Part shown: one piece after another, positions 40,145 through 54,262 of the stretch
Numbering within the stretch: position 1 is the first letter of the stretch
Layout of the letters: every line of letters begins with the position of its first letter
From: Podarcis melisellensis
Lineage: Eukaryota
Length of the DNA stretch: 64,000 nucleotides
Direction: 5' to 3' (one strand)
Assembly: GCA_964234715.1 (NCBI GenBank)
Contig: OZ174280.1
Notes under the pieces: generated by a model
What the model saw: only the letters and a program-made list of their open reading frames with translations
Database searches by the model: none
What the model was told of the DNA's origin: nothing
Translations under genes and position numbers: made by a program

Positions 40145-41071
40145 TTAGGCATGTTGTCCTTTTCGCATTTCTCCCATCTCTTTAATCTCAACCTTCTCAT
40201 ACTTGCCCGTCTTCCGCCTCCTGGTAACCACGAGCACAGTTATCCCAATAACAATGGCCAGGACTACCACCACCACAACTGCAATGATGCCCGCTGTCAG
40301 GCGCTGCATAGAGAACTCTGGTGGTTTGTCATCAACGTAGTATACTAGGATTTCTTCAATATCTAGAGGTTCGTCATTGACATAGAGACCAAACATATTA
40401 TCGGGTGGGAAAATGGGTTTACCCTGGATGTCTTTTTCAAAGTAGTAAGCTACATCTGCAATGTCTACATCTTTGTAAGACTTGTCCGAAATGTTCTGCT
40501 TTAGGTCGATATGGATTAATGGCTCCTTGTACTCAACAGCTGTGATGAACTTCGGATGGAGCATATAGCGGTTTTCAATGAGCTGCCGGAAGCTGGTTGC
40601 CACTTCTGATTCAGACAAGGGAGTTTTTCGCTCTTTGTGCTTCATCTCAATGTAGATCCAGCTTGTTCTGACCAGCTCGTTGCACCTCATGTTGAGATCC
40701 CCCTTGTCCGTCCTCCTTACCCCAGCGCTGTTCACACACCAACAAGTATCTGTTTGGTTGCACTGCCTGGCTTTGAAGAAGCCCATGGCATCACATTCTG
40801 GGTTATAAAGTCCATCGTTGTCCACAAACCCATGTTCGGGCCTGGTAAAACTTCTGCCTCTTTTGGTTTTTATTTCCGCCTTCATCAGCAGACATTTTGG
40901 AGTCAGCGTTGAACAGTCCAGCCTCTGGTTCGAAACGCGTGCCGTACAGATGCAGCTGCCGGACTCCGAACTGCAAGACGCCAGGTTATTCGTTGGGCAA
41001 AAGCAGTCGTTCTGGGCAGCCGACGTGGCCACAAGCATCAACACCAGGGCAGCCCCAAAAGCAGACTCCAT
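40145..41071 (-). CDS. TACSTD2: Tumor-associated calcium signal transducer 2 (Trop2), intronless EPCAM retrogene, 308 aa
   Basis: Single-exon ORF with signal peptide, Cys-rich N-domain, thyroglobulin-1 domain ([31 protein letters not shown]), [18 protein letters not shown], TM and [12 protein letters not shown] tail; ATG at 41071 (TCCATGG), whereas the track start at 41131 is TTG; position between OMA1 and MYSM1 matches known synteny. Confidence 0.96.
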   Translation of the reverse strand: [308 protein letters not shown]

Positions 41072-41139
41072 GGAGGATGAGCAAAAGAGGTCTTTAGGGA
41101 GAGACAGGGCAACACAGCAGCCTGAAGACAAGACACATC

Positions 41140-41420
41140 CACAACAAGAGCCTCCCGGTTTCTGAGTGATAGGGCGGGACAGCTGCCTCTCTTTCTACCA
41201 TCGGACCTGCCCAACCAGTCTGGCTGGTGACGCTCAAACAAAGCAGGTGTGTGGTGACACAGAAAACCCACAGACCAAGAGAGCTGCGCCTTCTTCAGTA
41301 GGGAGTGGCAGCAACTCTCTGCCTTCTCATACTTCCCTACCCTCAGCCTCGCCTCCTGGTAATCACAAGTGAGGTAATTCCAGAAATAATGGCCAAGACT
41401 TCCACCACCTGCTTTTCTTT
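41140..41420 (-). promoter_or_regulatory. TACSTD2: Putative TACSTD2 proximal promoter
   Basis: GC box GGGCGG 41172-41177, E2-boxes CAGGTG 41244-41249 and CACCTG 41406-41411 (ZEB/SNAI type), GRHL-like AACCAGTC / AACCGG. Confidence 0.5.
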
Positions 41421-52622: not shown

Positions 52623-52935
52623 CTAGTTTCAGATCAAAGAAAAAACAAACAAACCAGCATTGAAGCAACATTTAGGAAGAAAAGCCATCACAAATCTATT
52701 GGTATTCCTTAATCCGAATACCCTGAGGACTTGCTTTATATATGTTAGCACTAATTGAACTGTATCTGACCATTTACACAGATCTTTCATTCATTCAACA
52801 GCTGGCTTCTGTTCAAAGAACTGTCAAAGCAGTGAATAATCCTACAGTGTGTTAACACATTTGAATTTTAAAACTTACTAACATGTACTATTATATGTGC
52901 AACTTGTCACGAACGTTCATAACTCTCTAAGTATC

Positions 52936-53369
52936 TGTAATGGTTCTAGGGGTTGCTCGTGTGTAAGTTGTCGCCACTCCTGGCTAGGTTACCTGGGTGA
53001 ACCCTTTCTGTCTGGACAGCCTTTCACCCGTGGCTGTCTCAATCACTGGCAGAATCCGTCAGTGGGCGTTTCTTGAACTTCTTCCAGCAAAGAAGTTCTT
53101 TGACGCCTAGTCTCCTCCTACTCTCCCTGCGCGGAAGTCTTCTGCGCAGGGAGGGTGTGGGCAGTGGAGGACCTGTGCTCTCCCCGCTGGTCTCCGGTGA
53201 GGAGTCCTGTAGCCCCCTCGCCAATTCCCCCATCTGCCCCCCTTCTCCACTGGTGCTCCGCTGATTTCCTTCCCCAGCAGAAGGGCTGCCTGTCTTCCTA
53301 CTGGGACCCTCTCCGGCATCCCTCTGGAGCCTTCCCTCTGCCTCTGGCTCCGATGGCAGCTCCCTGACA
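52936..53369 (-). mobile_element. Solo LTR copy A (434 bp) carrying an open reading frame
   Basis: Minus strand TGTCAGGGAGCTGCCATC...ACCATTACA; perfect TSD GTATC (52931-52935 / 53370-53374); strand given is that of the ORF. Confidence 0.9.
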
Positions 53370-53512
53370 GTATCCTTTACCAAAATCCATGCAAAAGTGA
53401 CCAAAGCAAAAGAACCCCTCTAATATGTGGATATCTCTATCTAACAGTCCAAGAAAAACAATTCCGCACAGCACCATCTAAAATTTGTTTTTCACTGCCT
53501 ATGTAAGACACC

Positions 53513-53923
53513 TGTCAGGGAACTGCCATCAGAGCAAGAAACGGAGGAAGGGCTCCTGAGCGATGCCGGAGAGGGGACTAGCAGGGGGGAAGGATTTCAG
53601 CGTAACACCCATAGAGAAGAGAGGGAGATGGAGGAATTGGTGACAGGGCTCCAAGACCCTTCACCCGAAACTAGTGGAGAGAGCGCTGGGACGCCCCTGC
53701 CTTCCCCTTACTTGCGCAGACACGTTCCACGCAGAGAACATAGGAGGAGACTCGGGGTCAAACAGCTTTTATGCTGGAAGAGGTTCAAGAGACGCCCACT
53801 CTCGGATTCTGCAAGTGACTAACAGGTCACGGAGGGCGAGCTCTGACCCTAAGCATGGTTGGGCAAGCAAACTAACTAAACTGAAGGCAATTTACGCACA
53901 AGTAACCCCTCACAACCATTACA
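53513..53923 (+). mobile_element. Solo LTR copy B (411 bp), same family, opposite orientation
   Basis: TGTCAGGGAACTGCCATC...ACCATTACA; perfect TSD ACACC (53508-53512 / 53924-53928). Confidence 0.9.
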
Positions 53924-54262
53924 ACACCCATTCCACTATTAAGAGACAGGCACCTAAAATGATGCCCATGACAGGAAAACATCCTACTTTGTAGCCCATC
54001 CTCAAATGTAACAATTAAATCAAAAGACATTTTTATGAAAACATTTTGAAATCCATTTGCAAAAACCAAAACAAGCTACCCTGAAGGAAAACACAAAACA
54101 TTAGTAGCCAACAAACATTAGTTACATTTGGGTATAGCTTTTGCATATGCCTGTTGCTTCCAACCCAGTTCCACGAATATTTAAGATTTCTATTATAACT
54201 AGACAAGATTAGACTTCTTTAGGTATTTATAGGCAAGAAGCAAATGTATTTACAATTATTAC

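Follow-up and report, generated by a model that had tools for sequence, protein, structure and literature searches.

In vertebrates, the choice of insertion sites by LTR retrotransposons is largely unexplained, and targeting has been worked out mainly in the Ty and Tf elements of yeast, in plant centromeric elements and in retroviruses. HIV uses the protein LEDGF to land in active genes. Coding sequence within the U3 of the LTR is found in HIV nef and MMTV sag, which are separate genes with spliced RNAs and their own starts. Plant CRM elements of group A encode a targeting CR motif in the 3' LTR (PMC3059260). In Ty1 integrase, the C-terminal half is long and disordered, and a short tethering motif sits there next to an NLS (PMC10050235). 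The features of the Tf1/sushi group are taken here from two reports (10.1101/2022.12.06.519325, PMC6317226), the first of which describes the self-primer as the RNA 5' end. A TND-interacting motif (TIM), according to PMC9987994, consists of a helix, an acidic linker of 8-16 residues and an optional FxGF; all known LEDGF and HRP2 partners need the FxGF, CK2 phosphorylation raises TIM affinity, several proteins carry two motifs, and lentiviral integrases hijack the TNDs of LEDGF and HRP2. Another report gives D/ExExFxGF as the LEDGF/HRP2-binding consensus (PMC8022399).

The window, a stretch of 64,000 nucleotides from the lizard Podarcis melisellensis, holds two solo LTRs whose open frames are compared here with these systems. 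The features are as follows.

52936..53369, minus strand: solo LTR of family A, 434 nt, TG...CA, from a Tf1/sushi-type chromovirus; full-length relatives L066 and L183
53039..53368, minus strand: Pol C-terminal tail remnant, copy A, 109 codons plus TGA; fills U3 and ends in the predicted R
53063..53149, minus strand: most conserved LTR-coded block of copy A, with an Arg-rich patch, hydrophobic-Cys-Trp and a basic cluster
53053..53063, minus strand: family A self-primer (11 nt), at which the RNA is predicted to begin; complementary to the PBS of family A
52931..52935, strand not applicable: target-site duplication GTATC, left copy of LTR A
53370..53374, strand not applicable: target-site duplication GTATC, right copy of LTR A
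53513..53923, plus strand: solo LTR of family B, 411 nt, TG...CA; full-length relatives L031, L071 and L180
53514..53822, plus strand: Pol C-terminal tail remnant, copy B, 102 codons plus TAA
53712..53798, plus strand: conserved Arg-rich, Cys-Trp and basic block of copy B
53798..53808, plus strand: family B self-primer (11 nt), at which the RNA is predicted to begin
53508..53512, strand not applicable: target-site duplication ACACC, left copy of LTR B
53924..53928, strand not applicable: target-site duplication ACACC, right copy of LTR B
52623..54262, minus strand: host intron containing both LTRs, the last intron of an expressed JAB/MPN-domain gene; spliced RNA reads join 54263 to the last exon

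The two LTRs belong to different families and lie back to back, 143 nt apart, in one intron across which RNA reads splice; we take the host gene to be MYSM1. Distinct 5-bp duplications and distinct families agree with a preliminary description of this DNA, in which the two solo LTRs were considered independent insertions. The genome contains 3275 candidates for family A (40 scored, 95-100% identity) and 2204 for family B (40 scored, 97-100% identity). An exact 5-bp duplication was present at 40 of 60 LTR loci, and 13 of the remaining 20 are the ends of longer elements. One apparent full-length element (L014/L015, C4:75.57 Mb) was rejected, as it consists of the same solo LTR with identical flanks occurring twice, 3.9 kb apart, by local duplication. 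Elsewhere in the window (40145-41194, minus strand), we noted an intronless EpCAM/Trop-2 family frame of 349 codons, presumably TACSTD2-like.

Almost certainly, the LTR frame encodes the final 100-110 residues of a Gag-Pol polyprotein that belongs to a self-priming Ty3/Gypsy chromovirus. An extension of the Pol/integrase C-terminus inside the LTR had been proposed earlier as a second option, and full-length copies, which are Ty3/Gypsy chromoviruses, show the Pol frame running unbroken into the 3' LTR rather than a separate reading frame. In element L031, a 765-aa frame extends from RNase H over integrase, SH3 and chromodomain, crosses the polypurine tract and terminates in the 3' LTR, at the stop also seen in the window (Pfam domains RH, H2C2, rve, SH3_Tf2-1 and Chromo). 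Pol likewise runs into the 3' LTR in the family B elements L069-L072, L033 and L034, and in family A the junction is intact at 4 of 30 3' LTR loci, the rest being broken by stops or shifts. Related young families, whose LTR pairs are 99.5-100% identical, carry Pol frames without interruption (1374, 1381 and 1422 aa) that finish in the LTR in the same manner. The domains follow one another in a single frame as PR-RT-RH-IN-SH3-chromodomain-tail; Pfam searches with the 1374-aa Pol of L190 and with L031 gave the order PR-RT-RH-IN and placed the chromodomain at the integrase C-terminus. Continuity between the LTR frame and Pol was found in every lineage examined. Moreover, distant lineages, which are ∼30% identical in this region, keep an LTR-coded tail of 69-110 aa with an Arg patch and a Cys-Trp.

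The two window peptides had no match in a Pfam search, and neither tail gave a usable match in the ESM Atlas. Homologue searches with the tail returned Podarcis muralis entries and one Logan contig only; no locus of the tail was confirmed in metagenome and viral collections, and none of the sequencing runs listed as containing it is recorded as RNA. In UniRef, this tail closes P. muralis entries that go by the name 'Gypsy retrotransposon integrase-like protein 1', and 14 of 33 such proteins contain the strict tail pattern. The peptide had been thought possibly new, unless already annotated as a Gypsy Pol end; it is present in these automatic Pol entries, with no domain name attached to it.

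As described earlier, both frames are open (copy A from 53368 to 53039, 109 aa, TGA; copy B from 53514 to 53822, 102 aa, TAA), and their length difference is a single clean 21-nt indel. Our recount of the last 64 codons gave exactly the previous figures, with 49 identical residues and 21 synonymous-only and 15 non-synonymous codon differences. dN/dS between the copies was 0.12 in this stretch, against 0.54 for the first 38 codons and 0.21 for the full 102. Differences were distributed over the three codon positions as 11/8/27, or 9/7/20 once CpG sites were removed, and when the same substitutions were placed at random 5000 times, the observed pN/pS of 0.21 was never reached (null mean 0.82). 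The five other frames had stops in at least one copy and dN/dS values of 1.2-2.0, with the exception of an antisense frame sharing third positions (0.30). Within families, variants private to one copy gave pN/pS values of 0.45 and 0.73 and shared variants values of 0.30 and 0.27, in a comparison of same-length copies only (26/29 and 24/30). Since private variants are nearer neutral than shared ones, purifying selection acted mainly on replicating lineages. The earlier claim of purifying selection holds for the constraint on the frame itself, chiefly as selection on replicating elements rather than on solo LTRs.

Past the chromodomain, Pol extends for ∼200 residues, half of them coded by U3. 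In the predicted structure the chromodomain alone folds, and everything after it is predicted to be disordered. The residues forming the methyl-lysine cage of HP1 (Y24/W45/Y48) align with H/W/E, so that two of three aromatics are missing and the three-aromatic cage of Group I chromodomains is absent. We noted that a distant decayed chromovirus lineage (L251-L253) keeps a Phe/Trp/Tyr cage; three-frame translations of its three decayed copies revealed no acidic FxGF after the chromodomain. L260 combines a cage-poor chromodomain with one helix-acidic stretch and is possibly an intermediate.

The tail itself consists of two repeats of a hydrophobic helix, 8-10 acidic Ser/Thr residues and an FxGF, the first located directly after the chromodomain helix, followed by the LTR-coded part. 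This is the TIM layout of hydrophobic helix, acidic S/T linker and FxGF in a predicted disordered region. In 19 aligned copies, the Gly-Phe of motif 1, all of the FxGF of motif 2 and the Cys-Trp of the LTR part are invariant. The published consensus D/ExExFxGF occurs in 15 of the 19 tails, the strict form being missing in the other 4; in the very young family D, the first Phe of motif 1 is replaced by Leu or Met and the consensus Glu of motif 2 by Ser or Gly. A lone FxGF arises in 3-10% of shuffled tails, and the RT domain of this Pol contains one as well. The basic block contains clusters of the form K-K/R-x-K/R, which is an NLS pattern.

Among 11 natural copies, omega was 0.13 for the chromodomain, 0.17 for motif 1, 0.21 for motif 2, 0.34 for the spacer and 0.20 for both the LTR C-part and the basic Cys-Trp block. 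For the chromodomain, both motifs, the LTR C-part and the basic Cys-Trp block, these values fit far better than an omega of 1 (2dlnL 25-100); the PPT linker (0.65) and the first 36-45 LTR codons (0.69) are not distinguishable from neutral. Conserved residues are specified by mixed codons (Cys by TGC in 9 copies and TGT in 8), and those for Phe, Gly and Arg vary as well. Because the codons vary while the residues stay, the chromodomain, FxGF and Cys-Trp blocks are held as protein. This bears on the idea that the conservation stems from DNA or RNA signals (att site, promoter, self-primer) and that the frame is a read-through tolerated by Pol. The first codons do overlap the att end and the last ones the self-primer, the N-part evolves with an omega of 0.69, and the Cys-Trp lies 26-33 nt upstream of the predicted RNA start, at a possible core-promoter site. 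However, changes gather at third positions whether or not CpG sites are removed, codons for Cys, Arg, Leu and Phe vary freely under constant residues, and primer variants fall mostly at a synonymous Leu position. For the C-terminal 57 codons (omega 0.20, 2dlnL 93) the idea is refuted, and as a general account it can hardly be right; signals of this kind may apply to the first 40 codons.

In these elements, the complement of the PBS is no tRNA but an 11-mer within the LTR. When the 5' ends of 25 elements were compared with their PBS, four of the 11 positions being fixed by the search pattern, 18 matched at 11/11 nt, 4 had one mismatch and 3 had two. Self-primer and PBS covary in four family-specific variants, and four of four divergent elements match at 11/11 with sequences that differ from those of the other families. 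RNA folding gave primer-PBS pairing probabilities of 0.73-0.97. In three of the four divergent elements, as in the families of the two window LTRs, the self-primer precedes the end of the stop codon by 21-25 nt; in the fourth divergent element it comes just after the stop. Genomic RNA is predicted to start at the self-primer, about eight codons before the stop. With the predicted start so near the end of the frame, U3 would be coding only at the RNA 3' end, where it would be copied and translated as the end of Pol; 5' LTRs and solo LTRs would carry a mere fossil of that end, and a solo LTR is expected not to express the frame. RNA reads, of low depth and possibly from another species, covered a family-D element end to end with ∼3:1 sense orientation and revealed no clear RNA 5' end at the predicted start.

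These results also concern the leading option of the preliminary description, a separate accessory protein like Nef, Sag, Rev or Tat, which would be made from the shared ATG through the solo LTR, a subgenomic RNA or release by protease. An ATG in good context is indeed common to both window copies, and the 64 codons that it opens are the most conserved part of the LTR. Yet the ATG column holds Met in only 4 of the 19 aligned copies, and 10 of the 19 tails have no Met at all; the frame is continuous with Pol in the lineages examined, and the predicted RNA start lies downstream of most of it. In the same reads, again of low depth and possibly from another species, solo LTR B was almost without RNA and no splice joint into the tail was seen. 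An accessory gene should form a frame of its own and keep its start codon on a dedicated RNA, which was not found here; this option is largely refuted and we regard it as highly improbable, though release of the tail by protease is conceivable.

What the end of Pol does can be approached from its motifs. A role in targeting or import is likely, and it is fairly likely, judging from the sequence, that the tail is a disordered integrase module for targeting and nuclear import, with FxGF motifs that steer to host chromatin. We read it as a flexible tether because the FxGF layout fits the TIM definition and the D/ExExFxGF consensus. LEDGF/HRP2 may tentatively be named as candidate partner of the FxGF motifs. 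A fuller scenario is more doubtful: the lizard chromovirus may have lost its heterochromatin-reading cage and gained, besides two host-like TIMs, a basic Cys-Trp anchor coded by the LTR; its integrase would thereby hitch onto LEDGF/HRP2 and insert into H3K36-methylated transcription units. The cage-less chromodomain would then no longer read H3K9me, and the acidic FxGF motifs would bind the TND/IBD of LEDGF or HRP2, readers of H3K36me2/3, and Ser/Thr phosphorylation would adjust the affinity. As for the basic Cys-Trp block of the LTR, it would act as an NLS and as a DNA or nucleosome contact, and chromodomain, FxGF motifs and basic block together would tether the integration complex to transcribed chromatin. 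When motif 1 was modelled together with the Podarcis LEDGF IBD, the complex scored 0.24, with a mark of 0.34, in a run made with no alignments or control complexes and with a tool unproven on peptides. The PSIP1 exon of the host, a lacertid, is 100% identical to the P. muralis PSIP1 exon, and a PDB sequence search with the FxGF region returned nothing.

It is rather unlikely, in our estimation, that the Pol tail has a simpler job, such as nuclear import, nucleic-acid binding or solubility, and that the FxGF either binds elsewhere (to a different TND protein, a basal transcription factor, or the chromodomain or integrase core of the element itself) or balances the basic end. Charge balance needs less than what the tandem motifs keep across families ∼30% identical, namely the helix, the linker length and the FxGF, and the exact match to the published consensus in most tails also argues against it. 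In its favour are the K-K/R-x-K/R clusters of the basic block, the position of motif 1 against the chromodomain helix, the seemingly even dispersal of young copies and the disordered C-terminal half of Ty1 integrase, which carries a bipartite NLS (PMC10050235).

Regarding genomic distribution, the matches listed, which favour low-numbered contigs, include 67 intact copies of family D, and 4 of these are no more than 3 Mb away from a chromosome end, with 5.2 expected; given this bias of the list, the absence of family-D copies from C19 carries little weight. Centromere targeting as in CRM elements was rejected, since the listed young intact family-D copies are not piled up at chromosome ends. 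Old internal copies of family A have a different placement, 25 of 39 being on C19 and 12 of the 14 others near chromosome ends, which is better read as retention where recombination is low. We observed that C19 (38.8 Mb) is a strong store of older full-length copies, many of them block-duplicated and often beside L1-like RT fragments, and would fit a non-recombining sex chromosome. Coming back to the tether, the dispersal of young copies, the position of both LTRs in an intron of an expressed gene (two loci as examples of intronic placement) and the lack of FxGF in the cage-keeping lineage are weakly consistent with it.

Some copies deserve separate mention. A loss of the tail in young families, suggested by frames of 1123 and 1131 aa, was rejected; these are 98.5-99.8% identical to an intact family, from which a single homopolymer of another length sets them apart. 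Within a very young family (L282-L286, L264), a G homopolymer just after SH3 varies among near-identical copies, and its shift produces integrase frames without chromodomain and tail; either replication slippage or assembly error could account for this variation. L181, with LTRs only 90% identical, has a 5' primer and PBS of family A type and a 3' part of family B, and is likely a recombinant. Finally, at L242:2541-2915 (minus strand), IBD-coding exons of an HDGFL2-like gene flank a solo LTR of the same clade.

The class of element is already known, and the peptide is present unnamed in UniRef. In a full-text search of the literature, beyond which Repbase, supplements and older work could hold a case, we found no vertebrate chromovirus for which an LTR-coded Pol tail has been described and, within the same limits, no TIM or FxGF on a retroelement integrase; a paper that mentions both FxGF and retrotransposons concerns Drosophila JASPer. 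What appears new is the combination of a chromodomain lacking two cage aromatics, a predicted disordered tail with two conserved helix-acidic-FxGF motifs and, behind them, an LTR-coded basic Cys-Trp motif. With its short motifs and a specific candidate partner, such a tail lends itself to testing. If the motifs do bind LEDGF/HRP2, the element would have reached HIV's tether by a second, independent route, copying a host motif, and a chromovirus would have switched from heterochromatin to active genes. This would put a retrotransposon at the lentiviral tether by motif mimicry, with a whole U3 doubling as coding sequence. For annotation, it should be considered that thousands of lacertid solo LTRs carry conserved-looking open frames that are fossils of Pol and not genes.

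Among known systems, the lizard element is of the Tf1/sushi type by its domain order, self-primer and gag-pol layout. It shares with these chromoviruses (GyDB V-clade sushi-ichi, Amn-san; Metaviridae) the PR-RT-RH-IN-chromodomain order, an 11-nt self-priming PBS, TG...CA LTRs and 5-bp duplications, together with a Gag CCHC knuckle (zf-CCHC below the Pfam cut-off) and a pol shifted to the -1 frame (in L186 and L190 the gag and pol frames overlap). Unlike them, it has a predicted disordered tail of ∼200 residues, a cage-poor chromodomain and two acidic FxGF motifs. As in HIV nef and MMTV sag, its coding sequence overlaps the U3 of the 3' LTR, but the lizard frame is the end of Pol. With the TIMs of JPO2, MLL1, IWS1 and ASK (PMC9987994), the tail has in common the helix, the acidic Ser/Thr linker and the FxGF, often in tandem and in disordered regions. 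However, the known TIMs sit in host proteins and HIV integrase binds LEDGF through a folded site, whereas the lizard tail is a candidate by motif match and conservation. The predicted disorder, the short candidate tethering motifs and the NLS-like cluster recall the C-terminal module of Ty1 integrase, a likeness by layout, Ty1 being a Copia-type element that binds Pol III AC40 with a tail that is not LTR-coded. In plant CRM elements of group A, the CR motif replaces the chromodomain, priming is by tRNA-Met and copies are concentrated at centromeres, whereas the lizard element keeps a chromodomain, primes itself, has a tail with no Pfam match and shows dispersed young copies. In both, nevertheless, Pol extends into the 3' LTR, and a targeting domain coded there would represent a convergence between the lizard element and plant CRM elements. 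Each half of the proposed tether therefore has a precedent, the LTR-coded CR motif of CRM group A for one and the disordered tail of Ty1, with its motif and NLS, for the other.
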